IMG/VR virus record: IMGVR_UViG_3300030021_000030
Coordinates: 1-18,562 of that record
Direction: 5' to 3' (one strand)
Source of the DNA: a virus
Lineage: Duplodnaviria > Heunggongvirae > Uroviricota > Caudoviricetes
DNA length: 18,562 bases
The translations under genes were made by a program, and so were the position numbers. The notes beneath the pieces are model-generated. The model did not search any database and was not told the origin of the DNA. It saw nothing but the letters and a program-made list of their open reading frames with translations. Of this stretch, positions 706-18,562 are shown one piece after another. The stretch's first letter is position 1; each line of letters opens with the position of its first letter.

Positions 706-715
706 TCGTCTGACA

Positions 716-747
716 AGCCCTCGCGTTGAGGGCTTTACTGATTTTTT
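716..747 (+). terminator. Putative rho-independent terminator downstream of grxA
   Basis: Inverted repeat agccctc (716-722) / gagggct (728-734) with 5-nt loop, followed by a T-rich stretch (tttttt at 742-747). Overlaps the convergent ybjM stop. Confidence 0.45.
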
Positions 748-1112: not shown

Positions 1113-1381
1113 TCGTTCCTCCTGACACTGCGTCTATCGAACACATTTTTCGCCAGTGTGGCGTTCAGTAAGATAAAGCCGCTTCGCATTCCATGCTAAT
1201 ATAGGCCAACGCAATTCATATAGCCGTTGATACCTAATGTGATTACACTAGTAAAATATATTGTTACTTTACTATCGTTTAGGTGCGCTGAATGAATCTG
1301 CGCCCTGAATTCTGGTAAAAAACATTATCGTAAATTACCATTTCTTTCAACAGCTTACTAGTAAACAAGAAGTTAGCCTCC

Positions 1382-3067: not shown

Positions 3068-3179
3068 AACTGAAGTTGCCCTGAAAATGAAATTTTTTTG
3101 CACAACCGCAGAACTTTTCCGCAGGGCATCAGTCTTAATTAGTGCCACTGCTTTTCTTTGATGTCCCCATTTTGTGGAG

Positions 3180-3225
3180 CCCATCAACCCCGCCATTTCG
3201 GTTCAAGGTTGATGGGTTTTTTGTT
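3180..3225 (+). terminator. Rho-independent terminator downstream of ybjL
   Basis: 10-bp perfect stem cccatcaacc (3180-3189) / ggttgatggg (3207-3216) followed by TTTTTT (3217-3222). Confidence 0.6.
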
Positions 3226-3302
3226 GCCTGAAATTTATGCCTTTTAAAATCATGATGTTAGAAGCACTGTTTTTTAACGATGGCGACAAATTGGCGGCAG
3301 CG

Positions 3303-3521
3303 TCAAAGAGAGAGCGCCACCTGTCCTGATTTCATTGGATGCGGCTGAACCGGATTTGACTCTTTTGGCGTTGCAATCGAACGAACAAAAGTTTCATGGG
3401 TAACAAAAGTATGGCTGCAGTTAATGTTCTGGCACTGGTTGTAACGCTCTTTGGTCAATGAAGATACCTGAAAACTGCTGCGAGTATGGGCGGCACTTCC
3501 ACACAGTGGGCAAATCATCAT
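3303..3521 (-). CDS. ogr: Ogr-family late-gene transcriptional activator (zinc finger), 72 aa
   Basis: MMICPLCGSAAHTRSS...KERYNQCQNINCSHTF: Cys-X2-Cys ... Cys-X4-Cys zinc-binding motif typical of P2 Ogr / P4 Delta. Start moved to the internal Met so the product is 72 aa, the length of P2 Ogr. Confidence 0.85.
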   Translation of the reverse strand: MMICPLCGSAAHTRSSFQVSSLTKERYNQCQNINCSHTFVTHETFVRSIATPKESNPVQPHPMKSGQVALSL

Positions 3522-3611
3522 TTTTCGAGTTCTCCCCATTTTTGCTAAATTCACAATAATGATACCGCATTATTCCATTTTGAAAACTTAAAAGTTCTCC
3601 ATTGCGAAGAA

Positions 3612-4712
3612 TCATTCCATTTCGAAATCATCAATCTTCACTTCAAGCTCCAGACTGGTCGTAAAACCGTTATCCGGGCTGACGGTATGTGTCAGAGTCG
3701 TAATGGTCCATTCCGCATCATCTATCGGCTGTTTAAAACCACTGACCTTCACAGGCATTTCCGTGTAGAGATCTGCCCGCCCTTCCGCCAGTTGTAGCGA
3801 GAATGACGCAACGCCGCGTTGCAGGCGTTCCCACTGCATTTTTGCCGCTCGTTCGGCGTTGCTCCGGTTGGCATAAGTGCGATTAAGTACCAGCACGTTT
3901 TCATCCGTCCCCACCAGGTAATCGCCCTGCTTCGCTTCCGGCTCTTTCTTCTGCTTCTTAGTCCTGTGCTTACGCTTCACCGTAGTGCTTTCTTTCTTCG
4001 CGGGTTCGCGGGTATGCAACCAGCTGGCAATTACCCCCGTGTAGGCTCCGCGATCTGCCAGGGTAAAGCGGTGACTGTCGCCGTCCTTGCGTGTGATAGT
4101 GATCACCGGCAGTGGTTTACCAGTGGCGCTTTTGCCCTGTCCCTGCCGGATGAATAACAGATTGCCATTTTTCACCGACGCGATGGCACCGTACTGGCGC
4201 GCCAGCCGCATCAGAAAACTGCCGTCACTCTCATTAGTCTGGTCTATATGCTCCACGGGCTTATCCGACAGGTCTTTACCCAGTGCCATCTTCAGCTTGT
4301 GACGCGCGGCTATTTCCTTCACCACTTCCCCGACAGTGGTCTTGTGCCACGATTTTTCACGGCGGGTATTCAGCGTTTCCCTAAAATCAGCACTTCGCGC
4401 CCGGATAGTCAGGCGATCCGGTGCGCCAGTGTGTTCAATCTCGTCCACCGTGAATGCCCCTTTCGGGAAAAGCGGCTGCCCCTTCCAGCCCAGCGCCAGC
4501 GTAATGACCGCACCACGGCGCGGCAGCACGATTTTTCCGTCGGCGTCGTCCAGCTCCAGATCAAGCTGGTCCGCTTCAAAGCCCCGGTTATCCGTCAGCG
4601 TAAGCCCCATCAGGCGGTTGACCAGCACAGTGGTGATATCCTTGCCTTCAATACTGATGCTGAATGCTGGAGTTTTGTTGCCTTTGTTAAGCAGTTCAGA
4701 GCTGAAATTCAC
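3612..4712 (-). CDS. D: P2 gpD-like tail protein (late control gene D family)
   Basis: 366-aa ORF with the LTDNRGFEADQLDLELDDADG and WAV-type motifs characteristic of gpD; lies between U and ogr as in P2. Confidence 0.9.
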   Translation of the reverse strand: MNFSSELLNKGNKTPAFSISIEGKDITTVLVNRLMGLTLTDNRGFEADQLDLELDDADGKIVLPRRGAVITLALGWKGQPLFPKGAFTVDEIEHTGAPDRLTIRARSADFRETLNTRREKSWHKTTVGEVVKEIAARHKLKMALGKDLSDKPVEHIDQTNESDGSFLMRLARQYGAIASVKNGNLLFIRQGQGKSATGKPLPVITITRKDGDSHRFTLADRGAYTGVIASWLHTREPAKKESTTVKRKHRTKKQKKEPEAKQGDYLVGTDENVLVLNRTYANRSNAERAAKMQWERLQRGVASFSLQLAEGRADLYTEMPVKVSGFKQPIDDAEWTITTLTHTVSPDNGFTTSLELEVKIDDFEME

Positions 4713-5194
4713 GACAGCAGCCCTCCCACCGTTTTACTGATATCGCTTAAGGCAGACGTTGCCGTATCCTGCAAATTATTCAGCTGCGCACTGAGATCAC
4801 CGAACATATCGGACAGGGATTCATCCACCCGTTTGAGCGACAGGGTGAACTCAATCCGGCGCGGCATACCATCGCGGAAAAACTCCGTTTTAGTCTGATT
4901 CAGTCCCTCAATCACATACATGCCGTAAATCGTGCCGCTGCCTTCAATCAGGGGCCATGCTTTTCCCTGTTCTGCCATCTGCTCCAGAGCCAGCAACGAC
5001 AGCCTGCCGCCCGTTATCTCTGGCATAAGAACACCAGAAAGCGTCAGCATGTCGTTGTCCGGTCCCAGAAACTGCGTGGACGGACGTCGGTTGACCCGGC
5101 TGTTTGCCGCATGTCGCCAGCTGCGTTGATACTGCAGTTCCTGATACGGCACAGTGCGCAGCATAAACACGTACAATCCCAGCACCATCATCAT
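4709..5194 (-). CDS. U: P2 gpU-like tail protein
   Basis: 161-aa ORF in the P2 position between T and D; 4-nt ATGA overlaps with both neighbours. Confidence 0.85.
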   Translation of the reverse strand: MMMVLGLYVFMLRTVPYQELQYQRSWRHAANSRVNRRPSTQFLGPDNDMLTLSGVLMPEITGGRLSLLALEQMAEQGKAWPLIEGSGTIYGMYVIEGLNQTKTEFFRDGMPRRIEFTLSLKRVDESLSDMFGDLSAQLNNLQDTATSALSDISKTVGGLLS

Positions 5195-8100
5195 GCGTCG
5201 TATCCCCCCTGATCGCTGTAGTTACTCCTGGCTTTTGCCTTCAGCCTGCGTTCACGTTCATCAAGCTGACGTGCCACCTCCCGCGCAATATCCTGCGCAC
5301 TTTGTCCTGGCTGCGTCTGAATGATGATCTGCATCGGTGCCTCAATCCGCTGAACGGGCGGCACAGTGGCTGCACGACTCACCATCGCTTCGTCGCCTTT
5401 CGCGGGAAGTGCCAAAGGGTGCAACGGTGGAAACTCTGCTGGCGCGGCAGCAACGCCCATCATTCCGGCAACAACGGCAGCCAGTGCAGCTGTATTTCTC
5501 CGGCTGGTCACATTTGCCGGGCCGTTAACAATTTCCGGCCCGTTTTCACCGACGATGCCAAACTGCCCGCGCGGGATATACCCGCCGCTGTCATACATCC
5601 CCGCAAAGCCATATCCCCATGACGGAAAACCACCCGATGGCATCATCACTTTACCGTCTGCATTCACCGTCGCAGGTTGCTGACGCGTCACGCTTTCCGG
5701 CAGTTTCGCCTTTGCAGCTTCTTTACTGACAATGCCGAGTTTATCCAGCAACCAGGAAACACCGGATTTCAGGGAGTCCAGCGGATGCATGACCATATTC
5801 AGCCCTTCCGCCAGTGCCTCCCCGAATCGTCGCCCCATTGCCGCTGCGCTCTGCAGTTCGGCAGAGGTCGACTTAACAGGCGTCAGCAGATTAGTAAACC
5901 AGCCCCACAGCGCCTGTACTTTGTCGCCAATCCACTGAAACACAGGCTTAAGTGGTTCGAATGCAGCACTGATGGGACCTGCCGCCGCTTTGAATCCTTC
6001 CACCACGCCACCGAGAAATGCGGTGATGGGTTGCCAGTATTTCCAGACAACCAGCGCTACGCCTGCCAGTGCAGTAACCACAAGACCTATCGGACTGAGC
6101 AGAGCACCTAACAGACCAGATATGGCATACAGGGCAACGCGCAGCATCGCCAGCGGACCGGATGCCAGCACACGAAGCACCGTGCCTGCGGAGGCCAGTC
6201 CACCGCGCAGTACCGCCAGAGGATTCATAAACATCACAGCAACAGCACGTAAACCGGATAATCCAGACCGCAAAAGTGCAACCGGCGCACCTGCTACAGT
6301 TTTCAGGACATTTCCCGTCAGTGATGCCGTGCGGCGCAAAGACGACAACGGCGCAGTAAGTAAACCTGCGGCGTTGCCCGATGAAGCAAGCCCGCGTCGC
6401 AGCAGTGCCAGTGGTGCGCAAGCTAACCAGGACAACGCGCTGCTGGTTCGTGTTACTGCTGCCGTAACGGAAGGTAACGTTTTGATACCCAGCACAGCAG
6501 CCAACACCACAGCCAGGGTGCCGAGGCCCACAGTAACAGCAGCCACAACCGCGGCTACTTTCATCAGTGTGCCCGTCAGTTCAGGGTTAGCTTCCACCCA
6601 GCGACGCAACGCCCCCGTGATGCTTTTCACCGTGTACAGAATATCCATCAGCGGCTGGCGCAGCGTTTCGCCCAGGCTGCTGAAGGTGTTCTGCGCTCCG
6701 GTTTTGACCAGCAACCACTGCGCAGAAAGTGAGTCCTTGTTAATGTCGGATTCTTTCTGCATCGAACCGAGCGCATCATTGCCCGCTGTCAGTTTTAGCT
6801 GGCGCTGCAGTTCCGGCAGGTTGTTTGCCAGTTTCGCCGCATCATCGCCAAACTCTTTACCAAACAACATGGTCATGGCAGACAGGCGCTTATCCTGCGG
6901 CAGTGCGTTCACCTTCTCCAGTACGCGCTGGATAGTTCCCATCGCATCCTTCGTCATCTGCTTTTCAATCACTTCAGGATTGAGTTTCAGCAGATTCATT
7001 CCTTCAAAGAAACTCTTGCTTTGCATGGTCGCAATGGACAATTCACGCACCATCGCGTTGGCAGCACTGGCAGCGACCTCCGGCGCAGCCCCCAGTGTCA
7101 GGAAGGTGGAACCCAGCGCCGCCGCTTTACGATAATCCAGACGATCAGCCACACCGCCCAGGCGTTGCATGACATCAATGATGTCTGCCCCTTTCGACAT
7201 AGCGTTATCATCCAGATAGTTCAGCGCATCACCGAGCTGTTCAATATTGCGGGTTGGTATTTTGTAGAGCTGGGCGATTTTCCCCAGACTTTCTGACAGT
7301 TCATCCGCTGGCAGCTCAAAGGCTGTTGCCGCCTTTGCTGCCGTACTGGCGAAGGCCAGCAGGTCACGTTTCTGGTCCTCCCAGCTGTCGTCAGGGTTTG
7401 CCACATTCATGCGCGCACCACCTTCAACCAGTGCGGCGAAGTCCACAGCACCGTTTTCCATTGGCAGCTGTTCACTGGCAGCTTTGATGGCATCCTGCAT
7501 TTCGTAAAAACGCGCAGTGCGGTTGCCATTATCGTCACGCAGACCATTGACCTGCTTTGCCACACCTTTCATGGCATCTTCCATGCTGGTATAGCTTTTT
7601 ACCGCCGCCATCACTGGCGCGCCCATTGCCAGCCCTGCAGCCGTGGTGGTGGCTCCGGCTCCTGCGATGCGATCGCGCACTTCAAGCCGTCTTGAGTATT
7701 GTTCTCTGGCAGCCTTCATCCGTGCCTGTTGTTCACCCAGACGTTTAAGTGCTTTTTGCTGGCCCTCCAGTGCCTGACGAGTTTCTTCGGCATTTTTCTT
7801 AAGTTCTCGCTGGGCACTACTGAGTTGTCTGGTATCAATCCCTGATTCTTTAAGTGCCTGACGTTGTCTCTGGACCGCCCCCAACAAGCCGTTATAGGTC
7901 TGCTGAAGTTCCTGTACTCGTGTTTTGGCCTGACTGAATAACTTTGCCTGCGCGGCGGTTGGCCTGTTAGTGGCAGCAAATTGTGTGGCGAGTTTTGCCG
8001 CCTCTTCGCGGGCTGCGTTCAGGTTGTTGGCTGTTATGGCTAGTTGCGAGCGCGTCTTGCGAAATTCATCAATTCTGCCAGCCTGCTTATTCAGTTCTTT

Positions 8101-8229
8101 GAGGCTGTTTCGGGTATTCTGAATTGCGCCAGCCAGCTCTTTCGAACTGGCCTGTGCAGCACGGAATGGGCGGGTGAGTTTGTCAACCGCATTAAGAATG
8201 ACCTGCAGGCGCAGGTTATTATCACTCAT
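5191..8229 (-). CDS. T: Tail tape-measure protein (gpT-like), 1012 aa
   Basis: Very long ORF with an N-terminal coiled-coil/Ala-rich region and central hydrophobic Gly/Ala repeats, in the canonical position after E/E'. Its ATG overlaps the E' stop (ATGAGTGA). Confidence 0.9.
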   Translation of the reverse strand: MSDNNLRLQVILNAVDKLTRPFRAAQASSKELAGAIQNTRNSLKELNKQAGRIDEFRKTRSQLAITANNLNAAREEAAKLATQFAATNRPTAAQAKLFSQAKTRVQELQQTYNGLLGAVQRQRQALKESGIDTRQLSSAQRELKKNAEETRQALEGQQKALKRLGEQQARMKAAREQYSRRLEVRDRIAGAGATTTAAGLAMGAPVMAAVKSYTSMEDAMKGVAKQVNGLRDDNGNRTARFYEMQDAIKAASEQLPMENGAVDFAALVEGGARMNVANPDDSWEDQKRDLLAFASTAAKAATAFELPADELSESLGKIAQLYKIPTRNIEQLGDALNYLDDNAMSKGADIIDVMQRLGGVADRLDYRKAAALGSTFLTLGAAPEVAASAANAMVRELSIATMQSKSFFEGMNLLKLNPEVIEKQMTKDAMGTIQRVLEKVNALPQDKRLSAMTMLFGKEFGDDAAKLANNLPELQRQLKLTAGNDALGSMQKESDINKDSLSAQWLLVKTGAQNTFSSLGETLRQPLMDILYTVKSITGALRRWVEANPELTGTLMKVAAVVAAVTVGLGTLAVVLAAVLGIKTLPSVTAAVTRTSSALSWLACAPLALLRRGLASSGNAAGLLTAPLSSLRRTASLTGNVLKTVAGAPVALLRSGLSGLRAVAVMFMNPLAVLRGGLASAGTVLRVLASGPLAMLRVALYAISGLLGALLSPIGLVVTALAGVALVVWKYWQPITAFLGGVVEGFKAAAGPISAAFEPLKPVFQWIGDKVQALWGWFTNLLTPVKSTSAELQSAAAMGRRFGEALAEGLNMVMHPLDSLKSGVSWLLDKLGIVSKEAAKAKLPESVTRQQPATVNADGKVMMPSGGFPSWGYGFAGMYDSGGYIPRGQFGIVGENGPEIVNGPANVTSRRNTAALAAVVAGMMGVAAAPAEFPPLHPLALPAKGDEAMVSRAATVPPVQRIEAPMQIIIQTQPGQSAQDIAREVARQLDERERRLKAKARSNYSDQGGYDA

Positions 8230-8658
8230 CGTTGGCCCCGCTTCTCTGAATCGCTTTATACCGCCATTCCAGCACTTCGGTCAGCGGCATAACGTCAGTA
8301 ACGGATGGCGGCCAGTGAAAGATGGTGGCGATATCAGCCACCAGATCGTCAACCGTCAGGCTGTCGGTAAACCGGCAAGCACCGACTTCTTCAACAAAAA
8401 AGTGACAACCTCAACCGACATGGCAGTGAGATCTGCCGGGTCCATCTCTGCAATTTCCTGTGCAGTCAGTGCCGGACTGGAGATGCGGGGGATCACGGTC
8501 ATCATCGCGTTTACATCCATATCCATAATGGCCTGCAGGCGTGTACCGCGCAGCGCACCGGACTGCGGTTTACGCAGCACAATTTCGGTGATTTCTGTTT
8601 TACCGCGCTTGATGGGGGTATCCAGTTGAATGGTCTTTTCAGTCTGCTTATCGCTCAT
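8222..8658 (-). CDS. E: Tail assembly chaperone gpE and the frameshifted fusion product gpE+E' (E alone is 8356..8658; E' extension is in the -1 frame, 8222..8395)
   Basis: 100-aa gpE-like ORF; the T_TTT_TTG slippery heptamer sits at codons F87-L88. Manual translation of the -1 frame from the slip site gives a 59-codon open extension (VEEVGACRFTDSLTVDDLVADIATIFHWPPSVTDVMPLTEVLEWRYKAIQRSGANDE) ending at a TGA that overlaps the T start codon. Confidence 0.8.
8395..8401 (-). other. Programmed -1 ribosomal frameshift slippery site T_TTT_TTG (E/E')
   Basis: Minus-strand sequence ACT TTT TTG read directly from plus-strand caaaaaa (8395-8401); same heptamer as the P2 E/E' site. Confidence 0.75.
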
Positions 8659-8712
8659 TTTGCTGTCCTGTCAATTGGGTTCTGGCGCGGTATCCCGCGC
8701 CGTTCAGATATA

Positions 8713-9228
8713 TCAGAGGCCGAGGGCGTTGCGGTGCGCTTCCATCAGGTCCACACCGTCCACAATTTCCACCATGTTGATAAGGTCCACTTCATAGAGC
8801 ACCTCACCATTGATGGTCAGCTTCGCGTAGCTGTTGGTACTGGTCACTTTGGTGGTGTTGCTTTCGCCCGTCTTCCACTCGCCGGAATCCACTTCTTTGT
8901 GACGTCCACGCACGACAAGCTCCACGGCCTGCACTTCCCCGGTATCGTCACGCTGAATAGAGCCGGTAAAGCGCAGCTGGATGCCATCCACCGTGGCTTT
9001 ACCCATCTGTTTAAACAGCAGCAATTCAGTACCACCAATGGAAAATTCTGTGTCCAGCGCACTGTCATCAAGCCCCAGATCCACATCAACTGCACCAGGC
9101 ATTCCGCCGCCGCGATACTTCTCATATTTGCGGGTGAATTTCGGCAGCGTCAGCGACTCAACGATCCCCTGCCAGTTGTTCCCGTCGTTAAACAGGTTCA
9201 GGTGTTTTAATTTGCGTGGTAAAGCCAT
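8713..9228 (-). CDS. FII: Major tail tube protein (gpFII-like)
   Basis: 171-aa ORF beginning MALPRKLKHLNLF..., recognisable as the P2 FII tail tube family; follows FI. Confidence 0.9.
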   Translation of the reverse strand: MALPRKLKHLNLFNDGNNWQGIVESLTLPKFTRKYEKYRGGGMPGAVDVDLGLDDSALDTEFSIGGTELLLFKQMGKATVDGIQLRFTGSIQRDDTGEVQAVELVVRGRHKEVDSGEWKTGESNTTKVTSTNSYAKLTINGEVLYEVDLINMVEIVDGVDLMEAHRNALGL

Positions 9229-9237
9229 GTTGTCCCC

Positions 9238-10410
9238 TTACGCGCTGACCTGGCTGGCGAAATTCACCAGGTACTGATCGGTGATGCGCTGACGCAGCAT
9301 CAGGTTTTCAAGTGGCGGCACTGGCGTGTAGTCGTAGTCGATGGTGAGTTTTCCGGCTTTCAGCGTGTCTTTGTCGTTCACCGACTCATCCAGCCAGCAA
9401 TCACCACCAATGAGATAGCCCTGACTGACCAGGCTGCGCATTTTGGCGCGGATACCTTCGATAATGTCGCGGGCCAGCGACGGGTTAAGCGGTTTATCCA
9501 CCGCCCACATGTGTGCTTCTGCCATCGTGTCCATCAGCACCTGCGCCGTGCGGGTGTAGTTTTCGAAGGCAAAGAGCGGGTCATCACTCAGACAGCGGGA
9601 ACCCCAGAAGCGGAAACCGTCTTTACGCACAAGCGTAGTGACGTCGTTCTGGTTCAGCAGACCTGCATCGGTTGCCGGGTCCTGCAGATCCCAGAACACA
9701 TCTGCAGAAATTCCGGTGACACCGTTCACGCCCACGTTGGACAGGCTTTTGTGCCATCCGGTCTGCTCGTCAATTTTGGCGCGCAGACCAAGCGCACGGG
9801 CGGTGGCATATGCCGTTGCTTCGGCATTCAGCACCGTGTCCCAGCCAGTAAAGTCAGGCCAGATCAGCATCCCTTCGCGCTGGCTGAAGTTTTCGCGGTA
9901 AGTGATCGCCTCCTGCACTGTCTTGCAGCCATACGCTGACAGGTAAGCAAATCCACGCAGGCTTTGCGCCACGCTCAGCAACTCAGTAGCTACCGCCTTG
10001 GTGTCGTGGCCTGGCACGCCGAGAATGCGCGGTTTAACGCCGAGCTGTGACTGGGCAGATAACAGGGCTTTCATACCTGTTTTTTTACCTTCAGCAGTCA
10101 CTGCGCCGATGATATTGGTCGTGGTTTCGTCTTCCGTTTCACCCTGCGGCACACGCACAACAATGGTCACGGGTTTTGCCTGGTCAGCGATGGCATCCAG
10201 CGAACGGGCCAGAGTACCTGACTCACCCGCTTTACCGCTGGCAGTCAGCACATCAGTGATCAGCACGGGTTTATTAAGAGGAAACATTTTTGCATCGGCA
10301 TCATCGCCCGTGCAGACCATACCCACGATGGCGGTGCTCACCGTGGTAATAGATCGGGTGCCTTCGTTGACTTCAACAACGCGCACCCCGTGGTGGTAAT
10401 CCTGAGCCAT
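9238..10410 (-). CDS. FI: Contractile tail sheath protein (gpFI-like)
   Basis: 390-aa ORF ([19 protein letters not shown]...[11 protein letters not shown]...[20 protein letters not shown]) closely resembling P2 FI along its whole length. Confidence 0.9.
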
Positions 10411-10486
10411 AGTGGCGAACCTCCTGATTGGATTAGGCTTCGCCCTATGTTGAAGTGATTGTGCCTGACAAACAGCTAAGCGCAGT

Positions 10487-10504
10487 TGTGTCGTTATTCA
10501 CACA
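10487..10504 (-). promoter_or_regulatory. Candidate Ogr-dependent late promoter activator site (TGT-N12-ACA) upstream of FI
   Basis: TGTgtcgttattcacACA dyad in the 142-bp gap between the invertase stop and the FI start. P2/P4 late promoters carry TGT-N12-ACA centred near -55. Confidence 0.4.
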
Positions 10505-10552
10505 AAATGACGGTATTTGTCTACTTGCAGGGATAATCAAAATAATGCTGAT

Positions 10553-11119
10553 TCAGGGGGATTCATTGCTCTTATTTGCCGGAAATTTTCTATAAATGGT
10601 AGAAACGCCTACATCAAAAATCAGTGCAATACGCTGTCTTGATTCTCCGGCCTCGAGTAAACGCCCAATCTGTGCCCACTGTTCGGTGGTCAACTTAGGA
10701 CGGCGTCCACCTACTCTGCCTTTGGCACGAGCTGCAGCCAGCCCTGCCATGGTACGTTCAACTATCAGTTCGCGTTCCATTTCAGCCATGGCACCCATGA
10801 CATGAAAAAAGAAACGGCCCATTGGGGTGCTGGTATCAATACTGTCAGTCAGACTTCGGAAATTCACGCCACGCTGACGCAACTCTTCTATCAGCGTAAC
10901 AAGATGCCGCATACTGCGCCCCAACCTGTCCAGCTTCCAGACAACCAGAGTGTCTCCTGCCGATAGTGTCCTGAGCAGTTTTTTAAGCCCCGGTCTGTCG
11001 GACTTAGTGCCACTGATTTTATCCTCAAAAATCCGCTCACATCCCGCGCAGTTCAGTGCATTACGTTGCAAATCGGTGTTCTGGTCATTTGTTGACACGC
11101 GTACATAGCCAATAAGCAT
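10553..11119 (-). CDS. Serine recombinase, DNA invertase of the Gin/Hin/Pin/Cin family
   Basis: Translation from the internal Met: MLIGYVRVSTNDQNTDLQ...VVWKLDRLGRSM...FFFHVMGAMAEMERELIVERT...C-terminal HTH. The catalytic Ser is in the YVRVSTNDQ motif. GGGA Shine-Dalgarno lies upstream of the ATG at 11119. Confidence 0.85.
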   Translation of the reverse strand: MLIGYVRVSTNDQNTDLQRNALNCAGCERIFEDKISGTKSDRPGLKKLLRTLSAGDTLVVWKLDRLGRSMRHLVTLIEELRQRGVNFRSLTDSIDTSTPMGRFFFHVMGAMAEMERELIVERTMAGLAAARAKGRVGGRRPKLTTEQWAQIGRLLEAGESRQRIALIFDVGVSTIYRKFPANKSNESP

Positions 11120-11174
11120 GATCAATCCCCTGAATAAAAACCGTGGATGATGCCAGTTAGCCATTATCTCTGCA

Positions 11175-11200
11175 TTTTCATAAACGTTGGTTTGGGAGAA
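11175..11200. repeat. gix/hix-like 26-bp invertase crossover site (invertase-proximal)
   Basis: TTTTCATAAACGTTGGTTTGGGAGAA fits the Hin/Gin site consensus TTnTCnnAAACCnnGGTTTnnGAnAA and is 20/26 identical to the reverse complement of the site at 12275-12300. Confidence 0.6.
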
Positions 11201-11545
11201 GCGGCGAAAAGGGGTGTGGGCACAGGAGATAATCAGATACCGGATATGGGAGCATTCGCTTCTGGTTCGGGATGGTTCAGGCTACCAGGTGGATATATTG
11301 TTCAGTTTGGCACTTTTGCAGGAAACACGACCCGCTTTATCAGTGGACACTTCCCTATACCATTCCCTAATCAGCCGATGGTTTCAGTCAGTGTTATGTC
11401 TGATGCCGTTCAGTCAGACCCGTCGATTCCTGCCCCGCAGGTTTTGTCTGTAAATTTTGAACATATCAGTAATTCAGCGTGGCGTGTGGCAACCAGTGAT
11501 ATCTCACAGCAATACAGATTCAGTTATATTTCGATAGGACGGTAG
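11201..11545 (+). CDS. Promoterless alternative tail-fibre C-terminal segment (Sv'-like), expressed only after inversion
   Basis: Open frame runs through the gix-like site and encodes ...GWFRLPGGYIVQFGT..., parallel to the current H C-terminus ...GYFELPGGLLLQWGH... There is no plausible independent start; the ORF-track Met at 11147 lies inside the invertase gene region. Confidence 0.6.
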   Translation, partial: AAKRGVGTGDNQIPDMGAFASGSGWFRLPGGYIVQFGTFAGNTTRFISGHFPIPFPNQPMVSVSVMSDAVQSDPSIPAPQVLSVNFEHISNSAWRVATSDISQQYRFSYISIGR

Positions 11546-11547
11546 AA

Positions 11548-11973
11548 ATGCAGAAATATATTTTCAGTGCCGATAAAAATGCGTTTTTCCCTGTGGAGCT
11601 TAAAATCGCTTATCAGGAATCCGGCGAATGGCCCGATGATGGAATCGAAATTGACGACACTGTTGCCGCCGAATTTATGAAGGAAGCACCAGAAGGAAAA
11701 TACAGAGGTGTCATCGACGGAATGCCAGCATGGATTGATATTCCACCACCAACTCATGAGGAACAAATTGCTGCAGCCGAATTGGAAAAGCAGCAATTGA
11801 TTAATCAGGTCAACGAATACATAAACAGTAAGCAGTGGCCTGGCAAATCGGTGCTTGGACGCCTGAAAGATGATGAATTAACGCAGTACAATTTATGGCT
11901 GGATTATCTTGATGCGCTGGAAGCGGTGGACGTATCCAGCGCTCCAGATATTGTTTGGCCCTCCTCAACCTAA
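11548..11973 (+). CDS. Tail fibre assembly chaperone (Tfa/gpG/Mu U family)
   Basis: 141-aa ORF immediately after the Sv' segment (3-nt gap) with the conserved C-terminal Tfa-like region ...QYNLWLDYLDALEAV...; opposite strand to H. Confidence 0.75.
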   Translation: MQKYIFSADKNAFFPVELKIAYQESGEWPDDGIEIDDTVAAEFMKEAPEGKYRGVIDGMPAWIDIPPPTHEEQIAAAELEKQQLINQVNEYINSKQWPGKSVLGRLKDDELTQYNLWLDYLDALEAVDVSSAPDIVWPSST

Positions 11974-12001
11974 ATAAAAAGCCGCTCTACGCGGCTTTCT
12001 C

Positions 12002-13336
12002 TTACATCCCGAGTGCAAAATACGTATAGCTGTCAATATTGTTTACCGTGCCGTTTCCATTCCATCCATAAAGGCTAAAGCTAGTTAAGGTATAATTAGA
12101 TGACGTCACATACCGACCATCAGTTGTGATTTTATGCGGCAGTACAATGAACGGAGTGACGTTAAACGACTTCTTAAACTGTATAATGGCACTTGACGCA
12201 TGAATCGAGCCGTGCCCCCATTGCAGCAGCAATCCTCCCGGTAATTCAAAGTACCCATCAGCCTCCAGTAACCGCTCTCCAAAACCAAGGTATGTGAGAA
12301 GACCAGTTACATCCTTTCCACTCAAATTAGTCAGCGTATTGTCCAGCGGTTGTTTACCTGCCAGTGCATTAAGCATTGTCGTGGCAAAGTTCGGGTCATT
12401 CCCCAGCGCCGCCGCCAGTTCGTTCAGTGTATCCAGTGCCGCAGGTGCAGAACCCACCATTGCCGCAATCGCCGATTTCACAAATGCCGTGGTGGCAATT
12501 TGTGTATTGTTGACCGACTGTGCCGCAGTAGGTGCGGTTGGCGTTCCGGTGAGTGCCGGACTCGACAGCGGCGCTTTCAGTGCCAGCGCATTGTTAATGG
12601 TGGTACTGAATTTCGGATCATTGTTAATGGCTGCGGCTATTTCTTTCAGCGTGTCCAGCGTGGCTGGCGCACCATTAATAAGAGCCGTCAGAGCCGCCTG
12701 AACAAACTCGGTGGTCGCAATCTGCGTGGTGTTATTCCCTGCTGCTGGCGTTGGCGCTTTGGGTGTCCCGGTAAACGTCGGACTTTCTTTGGGTGCATAC
12801 TGTGAATGCGGGTCCGGTGCGGCAAGATGTTTTGCCATCAGGTCATCCACGTACACCTTCAACTCCAGTGCTTTGTCATCCACATACTTGCGGGTTGCCA
12901 GCACTACAGCAGGGTCGATTTTCAGGGTGATATTGTCCGTGCTGCTGGTTATCAGCACCATGCGCACGGTCTGGGTGCGCCCGCTGCCTTCAGCCAGTTG
13001 CGGCTTATAGCTTTCCGGGCAGTTGCCCACGGCAATCAATGCCCCGGACTCATCAAACAGGCCCACTTCACGTATCCACCAACCACCCTCGTTTTCAGGG
13101 ATCACCTGTTCAGCAATAATCTGGCTGCTGTTCTGCGGGTCGATATAAAGCATATTCAGCGCAGCCCGGCGTTTCTCATTTACCAGTGCCGTCTGCTTTG
13201 CGTCCGGCGTTGGCAATACTCCGCCGCCATCGCCCACCGCCATATGAGTAATTTTTAGCGGCACACCGAGCGCGGCGGCGCTGGCAAGTTTCGCCGCGCC
13301 AATATCCGTTAGCAGGGTATAAAATTTTGTGCTCAT
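12002..13336 (-). CDS. H: Tail fibre protein (gpH-like): constant N-terminal part plus the currently fused variable C-terminal tip
   Basis: 444-aa ORF with the conserved P2/Mu/P1 tail-fibre N-terminus (MSTKFYTLLTDIGAAKLASAAALG...) and repeated TQIATTEFV / TQIATTAFV collar motifs. The last ~90 codons lie inside the invertible segment. Confidence 0.9.
   Translation of the reverse strand: MSTKFYTLLTDIGAAKLASAAALGVPLKITHMAVGDGGGVLPTPDAKQTALVNEKRRAALNMLYIDPQNSSQIIAEQVIPENEGGWWIREVGLFDESGALIAVGNCPESYKPQLAEGSGRTQTVRMVLITSSTDNITLKIDPAVVLATRKYVDDKALELKVYVDDLMAKHLAAPDPHSQYAPKESPTFTGTPKAPTPAAGNNTTQIATTEFVQAALTALINGAPATLDTLKEIAAAINNDPKFSTTINNALALKAPLSSPALTGTPTAPTAAQSVNNTQIATTAFVKSAIAAMVGSAPAALDTLNELAAALGNDPNFATTMLNALAGKQPLDNTLTNLSGKDVTGLLTYLGFGERLLEADGYFELPGGLLLQWGHGSIHASSAIIQFKKSFNVTPFIVLPHKITTDGRYVTSSNYTLTSFSLYGWNGNGTVNNIDSYTYFALGM
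12275..12300. repeat. gix/hix-like 26-bp invertase crossover site inside H
   Basis: CTCTCCAAAACCAAGGTATGTGAGAA; its reverse complement TTCTCACATACCTTGGTTTTGGAGAG encodes LTYLGFGE of H and matches the site at 11175-11200 in inverted orientation. Confidence 0.6.
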
Positions 13337-13938
13337 GGATTCACTCTCATTGTGTCAATAACATGGACCGCCCCGCCTTCATGCGCGGTGCCGCCGGAAA
13401 TAATTGTTTCGTTGATATACGGATAGATCGTGATTTCTTCGCCAAGATAGCTGGCGGCTCCCACCCAATGCGGGCCGCTGGTCTGCAGGTTGATGGACAT
13501 GCCGATCATGTGACGGCTACATGGTTTGGCATCGCTTATCAGTCGCTCAAGTTCCAGATAGGTATCTTCAGTGATGCCCTGGTCCTGCACGCCGATATCC
13601 AGACGAAACGTGCCCGGTGTTTCTCCGGTATGCCACCACTCAATAATGCGGATCAGAAAGCCGAACGGTTCCACTACCCGCCGCACTGCACTGGTGGTTC
13701 CTTTATGCTGATGAATATAAAAAGCATCCTTCACCACCTGACGTTTGACGCTTTCAGTCCAGCCCTCATCCCAGCGATCCACAGAGAACGCCCAGGCGAG
13801 ATAAGGCAGGAAGCTGACCGGACAGGTCGCCGGATTCCACAAGTCACGAAGCGGCACCTGCAGATCAGAAATCCCGCTGCAGGTTTGCGCCAGTCGGCGC
13901 TCCAGTGGTGTTGAACCCGGTGGCAGCAGACTATTCAT
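13333..13938 (-). CDS. I: Baseplate protein gpI-like
   Basis: 201-aa ORF in the P2 position between J and H with 4- to 8-nt coupled overlaps. Confidence 0.8.
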   Translation of the reverse strand: MNSLLPPGSTPLERRLAQTCSGISDLQVPLRDLWNPATCPVSFLPYLAWAFSVDRWDEGWTESVKRQVVKDAFYIHQHKGTTSAVRRVVEPFGFLIRIIEWWHTGETPGTFRLDIGVQDQGITEDTYLELERLISDAKPCSRHMIGMSINLQTSGPHWVGAASYLGEEITIYPYINETIISGGTAHEGGAVHVIDTMRVNP

Positions 13939-14839
13939 CCGTTCCTCCGTTGGTTACGCTCCACTGCGTACATGATGCCGCCTGTGTTTTGTTCAGGACC
14001 ACATCCGCCAGAGGAGAAGCCAGCTCCACACGCTGCACACCCTCAACATGCAGGGCGGCAAAGATGGCGCTACGGCGAATATCCCGACCAAGACGCGTCT
14101 GACTGGCGATGTACTTCTGCAGGCTGGCTTTTGCCGCTGCCATTACCGGCTCTGCTTCCGGTCCCGGATAGAGAAAAATGGTGGCTTCCACGCGATACGG
14201 GATGATTTCTGCGCTGCGAACCGTAAGACGGTCAGCCACCGGGCGTACGTTCTCACTGTTCAGAGCTTTTTCCACCACGTCCAGCAGGTCCTTTTCTGCA
14301 GTTCCATCGCCTTCGCGGCTCAGAACAGTCAGCACCACCTCTGCAGGTGCCGGGCTGGTTGCACTGGCATCCGCCACCCGACCGTCGGCGCTTCGGGCAT
14401 GAAATTCATAAGCTGCAGTTGGCCCCGCAACTGAAAGTCCTTCAAAGGCTGCAGGCACACGCAGGCGTAACGCTTCATCACTTTCCATCACAGCCGCAAC
14501 AGGCGGTACAGCGTCATCATCAGCAGGTGTCACCGTCAGGCGTTTCACGTTGTAGTTGGCAGCGAGCTGGTCAAGATCGCTGCCCATCGCGTAAGCCACC
14601 ATCACAGCCTGCGCGGCTTCGTTAATGCGCTGGCGCAGAAGCAACTCACGGTAAGCGTTCTCCTGCAGCAATTTGGTGACGGGTTCAGATTCAAGCTCCA
14701 GCGTACGCATCACTGCTTCCTGCTCATCTTTCGGATGAAGCGCCACAAATTCGGCCTTGCGTTCGGAAAGCAGCGTCTCAAAGTCCGGCACATCCACAAT
14801 CTGCGGCGCAGGTAACTGCGAAAGGTCAATCACTGCCAT
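13931..14839 (-). CDS. J: Baseplate protein gpJ-like (302 aa from the Met at 14839)
   Basis: MAVIDLSQLPAPQIVDV... matches the P2 gpJ N-terminus. The ORF-track start at 14878 is rejected in favour of the conserved Met. Confidence 0.85.
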   Translation of the reverse strand: MAVIDLSQLPAPQIVDVPDFETLLSERKAEFVALHPKDEQEAVMRTLELESEPVTKLLQENAYRELLLRQRINEAAQAVMVAYAMGSDLDQLAANYNVKRLTVTPADDDAVPPVAAVMESDEALRLRVPAAFEGLSVAGPTAAYEFHARSADGRVADASATSPAPAEVVLTVLSREGDGTAEKDLLDVVEKALNSENVRPVADRLTVRSAEIIPYRVEATIFLYPGPEAEPVMAAAKASLQKYIASQTRLGRDIRRSAIFAALHVEGVQRVELASPLADVVLNKTQAASCTQWSVTNGGTDE

Positions 14840-15185
14840 TCTCTGCTCCTGTTGATACGGAAAGGGAAACAGGCACACCGTTATTACGCCGCCCGGTCAG
14901 CTCCACCACCATTGAACCGTCAAAATTGCTGTTGATGGTGATGGAATCCAGCGTCAGCCGTGGCTCCCAGCGACTCAGCGCCACATACACTGCCGACATG
15001 ACCTGCAGGCGTAATGCCGGATTTTGTGGCTGGTCTATCAGTGTCGACAACAGGGAACCATATTCCCGACGGGCAATGCGGCTACCCTGCGGTGTCAGTA
15101 GAATGTCCCGCACCGACTGACGCAGATGGTCAATATCAGTAATGGCTTTACCGCTGGTATTGTTCATCCCGCTATAAAGCGTCAT
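14826..15185 (-). CDS. W: Baseplate wedge protein gpW-like (GPW/gp25 family)
   Basis: 119-aa ORF between V and J, of the size and position of P2 gpW. Confidence 0.85.
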   Translation of the reverse strand: MTLYSGMNNTSGKAITDIDHLRQSVRDILLTPQGSRIARREYGSLLSTLIDQPQNPALRLQVMSAVYVALSRWEPRLTLDSITINSNFDGSMVVELTGRRNNGVPVSLSVSTGAENGSD

Positions 15186-15760
15186 ACCGGACCTCCAGTC
15201 GTGTCGCCGCCTTTCAGGACGCCAGTATGCTGATGCGCATCAACCACGATCCCGTTAGAACTCATCGCTCCGCCACCCTGGGTAACGCCACCATTGATCA
15301 CCACTTCGCTGTTAATGCGCGTGCGGTCAGCCTCCAGTACAAACTCACTGGTTTTCATGGTGATGTTATCAGCGGCCTCAATGACCATTGATTTGATGCC
15401 CCTGACATACCAGCTCCCGGTGGCGGGTTCGTATTCAAACCAGCCACCGTCAGGATGTTCTGTCACGCAGGCGTCCGCCGACGTCGACGGTGGTGCGAAC
15501 TGATTCGAATAGACAGCGGGCAGCGCAAAGGCAGTCTCCAGATTGCCTCCCAGACTCAGCAGCACCACCTGCTCACCTTCCGATGGTTTCCACCATGTGC
15601 GGGCATTACCCGCGCGCAGCGTCAGCCAGCTGATCCAGTTGGTTTCAAGGTCGCCCGTTTTCACCCGGCAAAGCCAATTCTCCCGGTCCACTTCGGTAAC
15701 TACACCTGTGCGGATCAGATTGGTGATAAGGCGCATGATTTCGGTTAATTGTGCGTTCAT
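15182..15760 (-). CDS. V: Baseplate spike/assembly protein gpV-like (193 aa from the Met at 15760)
   Basis: MNAQLTEIMRLITNLIRTGVVTEVD...RTWWKPSEGEQ... closely parallels the P2 gpV N-terminus; the longer ORF-track start at 15826 is unlikely. Confidence 0.85.
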   Translation of the reverse strand: MNAQLTEIMRLITNLIRTGVVTEVDRENWLCRVKTGDLETNWISWLTLRAGNARTWWKPSEGEQVVLLSLGGNLETAFALPAVYSNQFAPPSTSADACVTEHPDGGWFEYEPATGSWYVRGIKSMVIEAADNITMKTSEFVLEADRTRINSEVVINGGVTQGGGAMSSNGIVVDAHQHTGVLKGGDTTGGPV

Positions 15761-15806
15761 ACCGTATATATTAAACATTTGAAATAATATCTTCCAAACG
15801 GCATAA

Positions 15807-15837
15807 TTGTACTGAGGATGACACAAATGATTATAAA
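15807..15837 (+). promoter_or_regulatory. Candidate sigma70 promoter for the ATPase/TOPRIM cassette, in the divergent V/cassette intergenic region
   Basis: TTGTAC (15807-15812), then TG-n-TTATAAA extended -10-like element (15828-15837); AAGGA Shine-Dalgarno at 15861-15865, 7 nt before the ATG at 15873. Confidence 0.3.
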
Positions 15838-15872
15838 TTTAAGTAGCTCAACTAATAATAAAGGATACATAG

Positions 15873-17129
15873 ATGTATAAAATTCAAAGCGTCACAATTA
15901 ATGGCTTTTGGCAGCGATTAAACTGTTCCTGCTCATTTAATGATGATGTAAATATTATTATAGGCCGAAATGGCACGGGTAAAACAACCTTTATGAACCT
16001 TCTGCACTCAATATTATCCCTTGATTTGGACAGTATTAACAATGCTGATTTCAATAGTGCCGAAATAAAACTTAAAGATAAAAAAAAGACAAAAACAATC
16101 AAAGTCAAAAAACTTGAAAGCGATACATCTCCATTTTCCAAAATAGAATATCAGCTTTCATCTAAAAAACACACAATTCGTTTATTTAACACTGATGATA
16201 GAAGAATATCTCTTAGTTATAGACGTAGAGTGCATGATGAAACAGAAGAACTAAGAACAGAACTAGCAAAACTAGTCTCGCTTTCTTCTTTATCTGTTTA
16301 CAGATTAAGAAATAGTGATGATTTTGAAGTTAAAGATAAATATGGCTCTCGTTTTATCAACCCTGTTGACTATAAGTTATCAGAATTAATACAGGAACTT
16401 ACAAAATATCAACTTGAACTATCCCAGAAAGCCAGAGATATCGCATTAGAACTGCAAAAAGAGGTTCTGGCATCAATACTTTATAGCAAGGAAGATATGG
16501 AGAATCCTGCTTACAACATTAACTTTAACAAAGAGGAAGAAAAACAAAACCTCCTTAATGCATACACACAGTTAAATGCTATTGATCAAAACATTCGTAA
16601 AAAAATCAGCTTTCATGTTGAAACAATTAATAATACCATTTCGGAATTAAAGAATAAAAGTGAAAGTGGCTTTGATATTCGTTCGATCGAAGCATTGAGA
16701 AAAACACAAAAAATAATCAAAATGTCATTAACTTCAAAAGAGAAAACATCAAAAATATTTTCTCCAATAGAACAATTCTTAAGCATACTAAGAAATTTTA
16801 TCACCGATAAAGAATTTCATTTTCAATCGGGATTGTTAGTCATAAATAACACCTATGGGCCAATAGTTTTAGAAAGTTTATCTTCTGGTGAAAAACAACT
16901 GCTAATTTTATTCATTGAGACCCTCTTACAAAGAGGGCAACAATATATTTTCCTAACTGATGAGCCTGAGCTTTCCTTACATATTCAATGGCAAAGAAAT
17001 ATTATCCCTGCCATAAAAAAATTAAATCCTAATGCACAAATTATTGCTGCAACCCATTCTCCTGAAGTTGCATCTAAATATAAAAACGCCATTTTCAATA
17101 TGGAGAGATTAGTCAATGCTAATCAATGA
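15873..17129 (+). CDS. ABC/SMC-like ATPase (AAA_15/AAA_21-type), 418 aa; candidate AriA-like component of a PARIS-type defence system
   Basis: Walker A GRNGTGKTT (aa 31-39), ABC signature LSSGEKQ (aa 336-342), Walker B YIFLTDEPE (aa 358-366), H-loop AATHS (aa 392-396). A Lys/Glu-rich, probably coiled-coil insertion separates Walker A from the signature. The region is strongly AT-rich relative to the flanking phage. Confidence 0.8.
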   Translation: MYKIQSVTINGFWQRLNCSCSFNDDVNIIIGRNGTGKTTFMNLLHSILSLDLDSINNADFNSAEIKLKDKKKTKTIKVKKLESDTSPFSKIEYQLSSKKHTIRLFNTDDRRISLSYRRRVHDETEELRTELAKLVSLSSLSVYRLRNSDDFEVKDKYGSRFINPVDYKLSELIQELTKYQLELSQKARDIALELQKEVLASILYSKEDMENPAYNINFNKEEEKQNLLNAYTQLNAIDQNIRKKISFHVETINNTISELKNKSESGFDIRSIEALRKTQKIIKMSLTSKEKTSKIFSPIEQFLSILRNFITDKEFHFQSGLLVINNTYGPIVLESLSSGEKQLLILFIETLLQRGQQYIFLTDEPELSLHIQWQRNIIPAIKKLNPNAQIIAATHSPEVASKYKNAIFNMERLVNANQ

Positions 17130-17973
17130 TTCTAATGCAGAAAACTTTTCTTGGTCTAATGAAGCGGAAAATGTGATCAGTTTATTTTATGATGCTGATA
17201 TTATGGTCTATGTTGAAGGTGAAGATGACATTGCTTTTTGGGAAATAATTTTTAAAAAAAATGGTCGTTTTAATGTAGAAGTTCAAGATGTTGGTGGATG
17301 TGAAGCTTTACAACCATATATCGAAAAAATAACCTCAGGAGAAATAAACGCCATAGTTGCCAGAGATTCGGATCTAAACCATTTTTCTGACAACATAGTA
17401 AAGCATACAAATATTATTTACACAAAGGGATATTCAATAGAAAACACAATCATTGATGAAAAAATCATATCACACATACTCAAAAACACAGGCCGTTTTT
17501 GCACGAAAAAAATGCAGGAAATAGATGTGGAAAATTGGCTTTCTAATTTCTATAGCAACATTGAGAACTTAATAATACTAGATATTCACAATCATTTAAA
17601 TAAATTAGGATGCTCCGTAATTGGTGATTCCTGTGATCGTTTTATGCAATCAAGAAATTCATACAATATATGCAAGGAAAAAATAGATGAATATATCAAT
17701 AGACTACCTGAATCGTTTACTACTAATGGTTTAGCAGAAAAAAACAACATTCAATTCCCAGAAAATACATCTATAAATCATTGGGTGAAAGGGCACTTTC
17801 TTTTCTCAGCATCATTAAGATTTATAACAAACTTTTTGGCATCCATCAATAAAAAAACCTCTATATCCAAGGATAGTTTTTACGCAAACATCTTGTCTGC
17901 ATTTGAGATTTTTTATACAGAAGAACATGCTGATTATAGTTATTACAATCAAAAGATAGGGGCCATCACATAA
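17116..17973 (+). CDS. TOPRIM/DUF4435-like putative nuclease, 285 aa; candidate AriB-like effector
   Basis: N-terminal VYVEGEDD (conserved Glu, aa 34) and ARDSD (DxD, aa 84-86) resemble TOPRIM metal-binding motifs of OLD/DUF4435 proteins. The start overlaps the ATPase stop by 14 nt, with a GAGAGA Shine-Dalgarno inside the upstream gene. Confidence 0.7.
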   Translation: MLINDSNAENFSWSNEAENVISLFYDADIMVYVEGEDDIAFWEIIFKKNGRFNVEVQDVGGCEALQPYIEKITSGEINAIVARDSDLNHFSDNIVKHTNIIYTKGYSIENTIIDEKIISHILKNTGRFCTKKMQEIDVENWLSNFYSNIENLIILDIHNHLNKLGCSVIGDSCDRFMQSRNSYNICKEKIDEYINRLPESFTTNGLAEKNNIQFPENTSINHWVKGHFLFSASLRFITNFLASINKKTSISKDSFYANILSAFEIFYTEEHADYSYYNQKIGAIT

Positions 17974-17982
17974 AAAAATAAA

Positions 17983-18002
17983 GGCTGGCTTTTATGCCAG
18001 CC
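17983..18002 (-). terminator. Hairpin terminator at the 3' end of S, preventing late-operon read-through into the cassette
   Basis: ggctggc (17983-17989) / gccagcc (17996-18002) stem with 6-nt loop. On the minus strand it is followed by TTTATTTTTT; on the plus strand it directly follows the cassette stop codon. Confidence 0.5.
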
Positions 18003-18450
18003 AATCCCCAGAAAATAAATTCATAATGAATATTTTTCGAATTAATTTTTCACATCCATTTAATCCAAGCAATTTTCTCTCTGCGTAACGGATCTCAGGT
18101 CCTTTGCGGCTGACGCGATCACGTAGGCCGTAATGGTGAACGCGGGCAATGCGCTGTACCTTACCTTCAAACTGTACGCTGGCAGTATCCGCGCTGGCGG
18201 CAGTTTTCAGGTATTTTGTAGTGCGCAGCTTTGTAAACATCTGACGTTTGATCCGCCCCTTTTTACTGCGTGCTGTTACCCGTCGCGGTTCATAGCTGCT
18301 GCCGTCAGGGTTGCGCTGCATCCTGATATTATGCTGCTGTGTCCGGCGCAGTTCCTGCGACAGCTGGCGCATCATGCGGCTTCTTGCGGCTGGTTCTAGA
18401 TTCGCCAGCAAGGCACTCAGCCAGTCGTCCACCTTCTGCAGTTCAGCCAC
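17992..18450 (-). CDS. S: Tail completion / virion morphogenesis protein gpS-like, GTG start
   Basis: 152-aa ORF resembling the phage virion morphogenesis (P2 gpS) family, located upstream of V as in P2; start codon GTG. Confidence 0.75.
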   Translation of the reverse strand: MAELQKVDDWLSALLANLEPAARSRMMRQLSQELRRTQQHNIRMQRNPDGSSYEPRRVTARSKKGRIKRQMFTKLRTTKYLKTAASADTASVQFEGKVQRIARVHHYGLRDRVSRKGPEIRYAERKLLGLNGCEKLIRKIFIMNLFSGDWLA

Positions 18451-18562
18451 GTTTCACCGTCCACATTTCTTCAGGTTCATCGGGTTCTGCTACAGCTTCA
18501 ACGCTCGACACACTGCCGTCAGTGCTGACCAGCACACGTTCCGTCAGTTGCAGGTTAAGGCT
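18443..18562 (-). CDS. R: Tail completion protein gpR-like, 3' fragment (gene continues beyond the window)
   Basis: Open frame to the window edge ending ...EPDEPEEMWTVKRG, with its TGA overlapping the S start. Assignment rests on position in the P2 gene order only. Confidence 0.5.
   Translation of the reverse strand, partial: SLNLQLTERVLVSTDGSVSSVEAVAEPDEPEEMWTVKRG

Follow-up and report, generated by a model that had tools for sequence, protein, structure and literature searches.

The subject of this report is a pair of overlapping genes at positions 15873-17973 of an 18,562-nucleotide (nt) stretch of viral DNA, positions 1 to 18,562 of IMG/VR record IMGVR_UViG_3300030021_000030 (Caudoviricetes), referred to here in its full length as the window. 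The pair very probably forms a two-gene anti-phage system of the PARIS type, carried as cargo by a P2-like prophage of Escherichia coli, with the second gene product (open reading frame 2, ORF2) as its AriB effector and the upstream ATPase (ORF1) as its AriA-like partner. The gene pair itself, its family, the predicted fold of its products, the conservation and topology of the catalytic residues, the intact ATPase motifs of the partner and the mobile-cargo setting are all directly supported. Under the published MacSyFinder rule, PARIS is called when AAA_15 (at least 32 bits) or AAA_21 (at least 27 bits) lies adjacent to DUF4435 (at least 27 bits) (PMC9122126), and the window genes, which overlap, score 79, 71.3 and 95.5 bits, respectively. 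This kind of system is already known, and standard defence-finder models detect the window pair. What is gained is a function for genes that RefSeq labels just 'AAA family ATPase' and 'DUF4435 domain-containing protein', and that are called 'hypothetical protein' in a Peduoviridae phage that has been sequenced.

Within the ORF2 family, nothing is more strongly conserved than the acidic set. An initial annotation of this DNA had pointed to a TOPRIM metal-binding site made up of a glutamate in VYVEGEDD and a DxD in ARDSD, followed by YSIEN, and translation of 17116-17973 (+ strand) finds these motifs exactly where they had been placed: VYVEGEDD at residues 31-38, with E34 encoded by GAA at 17215-17217; ARDSD at residues 82-86, with D84 (GAT, 17365-17367) and D86 (GAT, 17371-17373); and YSIEN at residues 106-110, with E109 encoded by GAA at 17440-17442. 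The family-profile search, which covered 1.84 billion cluster representatives, returned 306 proteins at E <= 1e-30, 808 at E <= 1e-10 and 1675 at E <= 0.001. Across 55 homologues (34-71% identity), the invariant positions include E34, D37, D38, D84, D86, E109, N110, N159 and H227. When 61 more distant relatives were compared, which share 24-40% identity with the window protein and have a mean column identity of 34%, only V33, E34, D38, W42, D84, E109, N110 and H227 were still invariant, D86 was aspartate in 60 of them, and G226, next to H227, was nearly invariant. The range 17116-17400, earlier taken as the catalytic core, does hold E34 and D84/D86 but stops short of E109 and N110 (17440-17445), and D38 (17227-17229), which is part of the same site, had not been singled out.

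TOPRIM domains carry a conserved glutamate after strand 1 and a DxD motif after strand 3, and the acidic residues of ORF2 are arranged as expected for such a domain in an AlphaFold2 model built from the 55-sequence alignment (mean pLDDT 92.9, pTM 0.88). The model has four strands with helices between them, and its C-terminal half is entirely helical (Table 1). E34 is predicted to end strand 1, D37 and D38 to open helix 1, D84 and D86 to follow directly after strand 3 (80-83), and E109 to begin the helix after strand 4. In a Foldseek search of the PDB the best matches were AriB chains, 8ux9_A (E 5.7e-5, TM 0.56) and 8v46_D (E 1.1e-4, TM 0.58), with the C-terminal region of the Xanthomonas OLD protein (6njw, 6.2e-3) next. 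The arrangement of PARIS AriB, an N-terminal TOPRIM domain followed by a C-terminal helical bundle, is thus the one seen in the model. Structure prediction and fold comparison had been proposed as the check on the initial annotation, and they found a TOPRIM core together with AriB-like similarity over the full length of the protein. The metal-binding site is accordingly backed by both conservation and fold, and the suggestion that ORF2 is the nuclease effector is supported by its AriB family membership, its fold and its catalytic residues.

The family assignment of ORF2 relies on the DUF4435 score given above and on the PADLOC AriB models (4.1e-22). One of these, PDLC02983, bridges the window protein (4.1e-22) and the AriB of E. 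coli B185 (4.6e-9), the type protein. Pfam DUF4435 failed as such a bridge, because the type AriB does not reach it in hmmscan. The Pfam family OLD-like_TOPRIM matches residues 27-86 of ORF2, exactly from E34 to D86, at 16.7 bits and so below its cutoff of 23.2, and a search of NCBIfam gave no meaningful family for ORF2. For residue-level comparison, the B185-type AriB was taken from a P4 satellite locus (L002, 4516-5439); its match to PDB 8ux9_A is full-length (E 9.7e-204), and the published AriB residue numbers fit it. The sole hmmscan match of this type protein was DUF3226 (E 0.03), though PARIS was defined via DUF4435, and in the same L002 genome the ariA gene upstream of it was called as three separate pieces (205, 77 and 172 amino acids (aa)). 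A profile-sequence alignment of the ORF2 family with B185 AriB (hhalign, 199 columns) had a weak score (E 0.016, probability 2.8%) and a coherent register. On this weak alignment, five acidic residues of ORF2 are equivalent to E26, D30, D88, E90 and E122 of AriB (Table 1), which form its two-metal site (Burman et al. PMC11464382; Deep et al. PMC10802264). Substitution E26A in AriB abolishes PARIS defence (PMC11464382), as does E90A (PMC10802264).

Several observations weigh against the PARIS assignment. ORF2 is just 13-15% identical to B185 AriB, and the DxE of the latter is a DxD in the window protein. The solved AriB was not found in the PDB by phmmer with ORF2 or by hmmsearch with the 55-sequence profile, even at E <= 10, and the link to AriB was therefore drawn from the fold and from profile-profile comparison. 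With the HMMER filters off, the family profile scores B185 AriB at 2.8 bits and aligns solely the GYSIEN/GHSLEN stretch, so the residue mapping is a tentative one, with fold and motif order in its favour. The other tested AriB, from PARIS-1 of E. coli O42, is about 25% identical to the window family, in the TOPRIM region only (hhalign E 7e-4; BLASTP 1e-4). R28 and R31 of B185 AriB, which form salt bridges to AriA, align with E36 and I39 of ORF2, while K60 and K64, which contact the anticodon loop, fall within an 8-residue segment that is absent from ORF2; the two lysines are required for defence and have been modelled on the anticodon loop (PMC12409363). ORF1 is 46 residues shorter than B185 AriA (418 versus 464 aa). 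An AriA-AriB interface, if present in the window system, would on these alignments differ in detail from that of B185; around the dimer-interface residues of B185 AriB (F137, K144, E285, R289) the alignment is too weak to judge.

The upstream partner, ORF1, has the Pfam AAA_15 and AAA_21 matches noted above, and its PADLOC AriA score (7.6e-39) is ahead of the PtuA models (~1e-23; 2.5e-23). It also matches PDB AriA directly (8ux9_B, 1.5e-20). Its AlphaFold2 model (pLDDT 80.9) gave AriA chains as all of the top 14 Foldseek matches (E 3.8e-19 to 5e-16, TM 0.59-0.68), followed by retron and Septu PtuA and by Rad50. In form the protein agrees with AriA, which is an ABC/SMC-type ATPase that has a coiled-coil insertion, and its motifs are intact (compare K39 and E393 in B185): Walker A GRNGTGKTT (K37), the signature LSSGEKQ at 336-342, Walker B FLTDEPE (D363/E364) and the H-loop ATHSP (H395). 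K37, LSSGEKQ, D363/E364 and H395 are invariant in 47 homologues. That the ATPase is the partner of ORF2, as was first proposed from the adjacent reading frames, is borne out by its likeness to AriA in sequence and fold and by the recurrence of an overlapping ATPase and DUF4435 pair in phages of E. coli, in Vibrio and in a cyanobacterium. Within the window clade AriA is better conserved than AriB, with mean column identities of 69% and 48% (alignments A1 and A2), and in the nearest E. coli allele the two proteins are 86% and 72% identical, respectively. In the studied PARIS system only the pore residues of AriA have been described as poorly conserved (PMC11464382), and no direct contrast with that system is to be drawn from these figures.

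Related ATPase-nuclease systems were considered as alternative identities. In the OLD family (P2 Old; class 1 and class 2 OLD, PDB 6p74, 6nk8 and 6njw), an N-terminal ABC ATPase and a C-terminal TOPRIM domain are fused in one polypeptide, whereas the window encodes two proteins, and the C-terminal helical domain of its nuclease is AriB-like; an OLD identity was rejected on the unfused arrangement and on the stronger match to AriB. Septu and retron PtuA, AbiL/RloAB and Gabija GajA have related ABC ATPases, and AbiL, RloB and GajA also have a TOPRIM-type nuclease. However, PtuA is partnered by an HNH nuclease, and GajA is a fusion protein with a helicase partner, both unlike the window pair. Septu (PtuA/PtuB) was rejected because ORF1 reaches 67 bits against the NCBIfam PtuA cutoff of 500 bits, PtuA ranks below AriA in PADLOC, and the partner is a DUF4435 protein, not HNH. 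AbiL/RloAB was rejected because ORF2 has no RloB or AbiLii match in Pfam or PADLOC, where only AriB and AriAB models respond, and GajA was set aside on architecture and scores, as ORF2 matches no GajA model in PADLOC. A further relative by chemistry is RNase M5, a two-metal TOPRIM RNase whose active site superposes on that of AriB (PMC12409363).

The window system can be set beside the two PARIS systems that have been tested. With that of E. coli B185 (P4 satellite; PDB 8ux9, 8v45-8v49) it shares an ABC/SMC-type ATPase gene overlapping a following DUF4435/TOPRIM gene, the aligned acidic residues and R/K-G-H motif, an AriA that matches by sequence and fold, and carriage on a mobile element of the P2/P4 family. 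The differences are those listed above as points against the assignment (an AriB beyond the reach of phmmer and hmmsearch, DxD in place of DxE, R28/R31 and K60/K64 not conserved, and the shorter AriA) and the site of carriage, which is the P2 orf30 site for the window pair and the P4 psu-int hotspot for B185. PARIS-1 of E. coli O42 (pFR84; Rousset et al. 2022) is experimentally active, and its AriB (sequence in the supplement of PMC9122126) is, like the window protein, a clear member of Pfam DUF4435, and it has the same motif forms (FVFEGDDD, VDQD and YAIEN). It differs in a C-terminal domain that is not alignable, in having RGKY instead of K/RGHF, in its longer AriA and in its location on a P4 satellite.

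Table 1. Coordinates of the gene pair, its sequence motifs and its flanking features in the window.
Feature	Position	Strand	Remarks
ariA-like gene (ORF1)	15873-17129	+	418-aa ABC/SMC-type ATPase
ariB-like gene (ORF2)	17116-17973	+	285-aa DUF4435 protein; N-terminal TOPRIM nuclease domain, then C-terminal helical bundle
TOPRIM domain	17191-17460	+	residues ~26-115; strands 29-33, 54-58, 80-83 and 100-102 with helices between
E34-G-E-D37-D38 (TOPRIM glutamate and first aspartate)	17215-17229	+	hhalign pairs VYVE34GEDD38 with LLVE26GRHD30 of B185 AriB (E34 with E26, D38 with D30)
D84-S-D86 (DxD motif)	17365-17373	+	hhalign pairs ARD84SD86 with LCD88RE90 of B185 AriB (D84 with D88, D86 with E90)
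E109-N110 of YSIEN (fifth acidic ligand)	17440-17445	+	hhalign pairs YSIE109N with HSLE122N of B185 AriB (E109 with E122)
K225-G-H227-F, C-terminal helical domain	17788-17799	+	family consensus RGHF; hhalign pairs K225-G-H227 with R236-G-H of B185 AriB
Promoter-like site TTGAAA-17-CATAAT (candidate)	15779-15807	+	65 nt 5' of ariA; 10/12 matches
Left flank, P2 baseplate gene V	15182-15760	-	Pfam Phage_base_V and GpV Apex; RefSeq annotation of identical locus
Right flank, P2 tail completion gene S	17992-18450	-	Pfam Phage_tail_S 1.8e-37; RefSeq annotation
GC-rich hairpin GGCTGGC-N6-GCCAGCC, then T-run	17983-18002	-	terminator scan; overlaps gene S stop codon

The proposed mode of action is based on the work on E. 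coli B185 PARIS (PMC11464382, PMC10802264, PMC12409363). There, a hexamer of AriA sequesters up to three AriB monomers through salt bridges of AriB R28 and R31, a phage trigger such as Ocr releases AriB, which dimerises, and the effector cleaves tRNA-Lys(UUU) at position 40/41 and arrests translation. By analogy, E34, D38, D84, D86 and E109 of the window AriB would bind a pair of divalent metal ions and cleave a phosphodiester bond. An AriA oligomer would keep AriB inactive until a phage protein bound to AriA, together with ATP, led to its release; AriB would then dimerise and cleave host tRNA, acting as a two-metal endoribonuclease that nicks the anticodon stem of specific tRNAs and leaves 3'-OH and 5'-phosphate ends, so that translation would halt and the infection abort. 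Oligomeric sequestration, trigger, dimerisation and tRNA substrate are all transferred from B185 in this scheme, as are the role of sensor or scaffold that the initial annotation gave to the ATPase and the RNA- or tRNA-directed activity that it gave to ORF2, both of which we infer from the studied system. The AriA-AriB interface, the trigger and the set of tRNAs may differ from those of B185, because R28/R31 and K60/K64 are not kept and AriA is shorter.

Several other explanations of the gene pair stand beside this scheme. That the acidic motifs are a coincidence in an Asp/Glu-rich non-enzyme is scarcely believable. The bare pattern E-(40-70 aa)-DxD is indeed uninformative by itself, being present in 53% of shuffles of the ORF2 protein (40 Asp/Glu in 285 residues). 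An extended pattern (hydrophobic strand-EG..D ... hydrophobic strand-D.[DE] ... [ST].EN), on the other hand, arose in 0 of 20,000 shuffles, the residues are invariant among relatives at 24-40% identity with a mean column identity of 34%, and they occupy the canonical TOPRIM positions in a confident model; the motif is considered real because of conservation and fold, and not because of the bare pattern. Greater weight, though still little, attaches to the idea that the pair is chiefly a toxin-antitoxin addiction module that stabilises the prophage and plays no part against other phages. The overlap of the genes and their prophage location are in keeping with this, and PARIS formally behaves as a type II toxin-antitoxin pair (PMC10802264), but the pair is not confined to prophages, being present in a cyanobacterial chromosome as well, deletion of ariA in B185 PARIS is not toxic (PMC9122126), and the presence of three strongly diverged alleles at the V/S site is a turnover typical of defence cargo in P2 hotspots (PMC13586616). 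It is also unlikely that the effector acts on DNA instead of being an RNase, with nicking or degradation of the kind that class 2 OLD or GajA show in vitro. The similarity of ORF2 to AriB over its full length, including the C-terminal helical domain, is about twice as strong as that to OLD, and its partner is AriA-like; moreover, AriB acts as an RNase both in vitro and in vivo (PMC11464382, PMC12409363), and P2 Old itself has been reported to cut tRNA (PMC12445682).

A rather more substantial possibility, although not the one favoured here, is that the architecture and TOPRIM chemistry are those of PARIS and the substrate is something other than tRNA-Lys(UUU), -Thr or -Asn, such as other tRNAs or a structured RNA. 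The elements of the studied AriB that contact its substrate are not conserved: the K60/K64 insertion is absent, R28, which is modelled on U16 of the D-loop, corresponds to E36, and identity is only 13%. In addition, the two tested PARIS systems already differ in their defence profiles (PMC9122126). Against this, the overall two-domain fold is retained, and so is the RGH motif, as K/RGH with an invariant H227; the corresponding R236 of B185 AriB contacts U17 of the tRNA D-loop in an AlphaFold 3 model (PMC12409363). Cleavage of tRNA anticodon arms is reported even for relatives as remote as P2 OLD (PMC12445682), making tRNA the default target of the superfamily.

The assignment to PARIS, with ORF2 as an AriB that may be tRNA-directed, is the reading retained here in its general form, and the clade around the window may have features of its own. 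It could, as a tentative proposal, be a functionally distinct PARIS that cuts other tRNAs or RNA, uses another AriA interface and responds to another phage trigger, since its AriB is without the K60/K64 'tweezer' helix and the R28/R31 contacts, and its AriA is shorter than the studied one and better conserved than the AriB beside it. About 300 clusters (50% identity, E <= 1e-30) make up the clade. No paper was found for the RefSeq accessions of the window proteins, and among the papers from 2025 onward on AriA, AriB and PARIS none had a title that dealt with specificity in other PARIS clades; no experiments were found on this clade, which is far from the two tested systems. With its catalytic centre kept and its substrate- and partner-contacting residues different, at ~13% identity, it offers a natural comparison for the study of tRNA specificity and trigger recognition.

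The two genes are translationally coupled: the start of the ariB-like gene overlaps the stop of the ariA-like gene by 14 nt, and a GGAGA lies ~8 nt 5' of the ariB-like ATG. Together they make up an island (15760-17990) with a GC content of ~30%, compared to ~57% in the surrounding DNA. The annotated start of gene V is the ATG at 15760, and the promoter-like site lies in the 112-nt AT-rich gap that separates the divergent genes V and ariA. It counts only as a candidate, as sites of this kind are no more numerous in this AT-rich stretch than expected from shuffled sequence. On its right side the low-GC island is bounded by the hairpin at 17983-18002, which from its sequence is likely to terminate the P2 late operon whose last gene is S. 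The plus strand has no T-run at this hairpin, and a terminator for ariAB is not evident. A search of the window for tRNA genes found none, and hence no possible counter-defence or target copy.

The island is cargo in the orf30 site of a P2-like prophage, between the tail genes V and S. The orf30 position is one of three regions of P2-like phages known to carry horizontally acquired genes (PMC3091744), and defence systems within P2 tail genes have recently been noted (PMC13586616). Among 5426 complete E. coli genomes, 3 contain the exact island and 31 contain some member of the clade. Pairs of a ~420-aa ATPase gene overlapping a ~280-aa DUF4435 gene recur in E. coli P2-like prophages (L003) and in phage vB_EcoM-813R9 (Peduoviridae), where the AriB allele is 44% identical, in a further locus with a 76%-nt allele (L009), in Vibrio parahaemolyticus and in the cyanobacterium Nodosilinea. 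In the E. coli P2-like prophages and the Peduoviridae phage the overlapping pair is kept at the V/S site. Megablast of the island against the phage collection returned nothing, and the 44%-identical allele was found by tblastn alone. At the V/S (P2 orf30) junction (window 15761-17990; L003, L009 and L011) different P2-like prophages and phages of E. coli carry ariAB alleles of at least three strongly diverged kinds, with nt identities of 100%, 76% and ~65%. This classical cargo site of P2-like phages is hence a carrier of diverged PARIS alleles, which suggests repeated replacement of one type of system at one site.

Some carriers of the island show signs of decay. In strain S56 (NZ_CP010242.1, 2906516-2908682) the same island has two coding sequences annotated per gene and is probably disrupted. 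In strain EC596 (L001) the prophage is degraded, with gene D and the replication endonuclease truncated and an internal stop in the integrase, and yet the ariAB pair is intact and 100% identical to that of the window. The window prophage abuts chromosomal ybjL, which encodes an aspartate:alanine antiporter, and the end of the prophage carries P2 ogr (window 1382-3067 and 3303-3554); the window therefore spans a prophage-chromosome junction.

Elsewhere in the window, the tail-fibre region encodes a serine recombinase of 203 aa (10553-11164, - strand; Pfam Resolvase and HTH_7). It adjoins a gp53-like tail-fibre C-terminus (11147-11545, +) and a tail-fibre assembly gene (11548-11973, +), both opposite in direction to the tail-fibre gene H (12002-13336, -). 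The segment 10553-11973 looks like an invertible host-range switch of the Gin/Cin/Hin type; a search for inverted repeats bounding the putative invertible segment found none. At the same position, strain 2014C-3075 has a pseudogenised recombinase and an acyltransferase.

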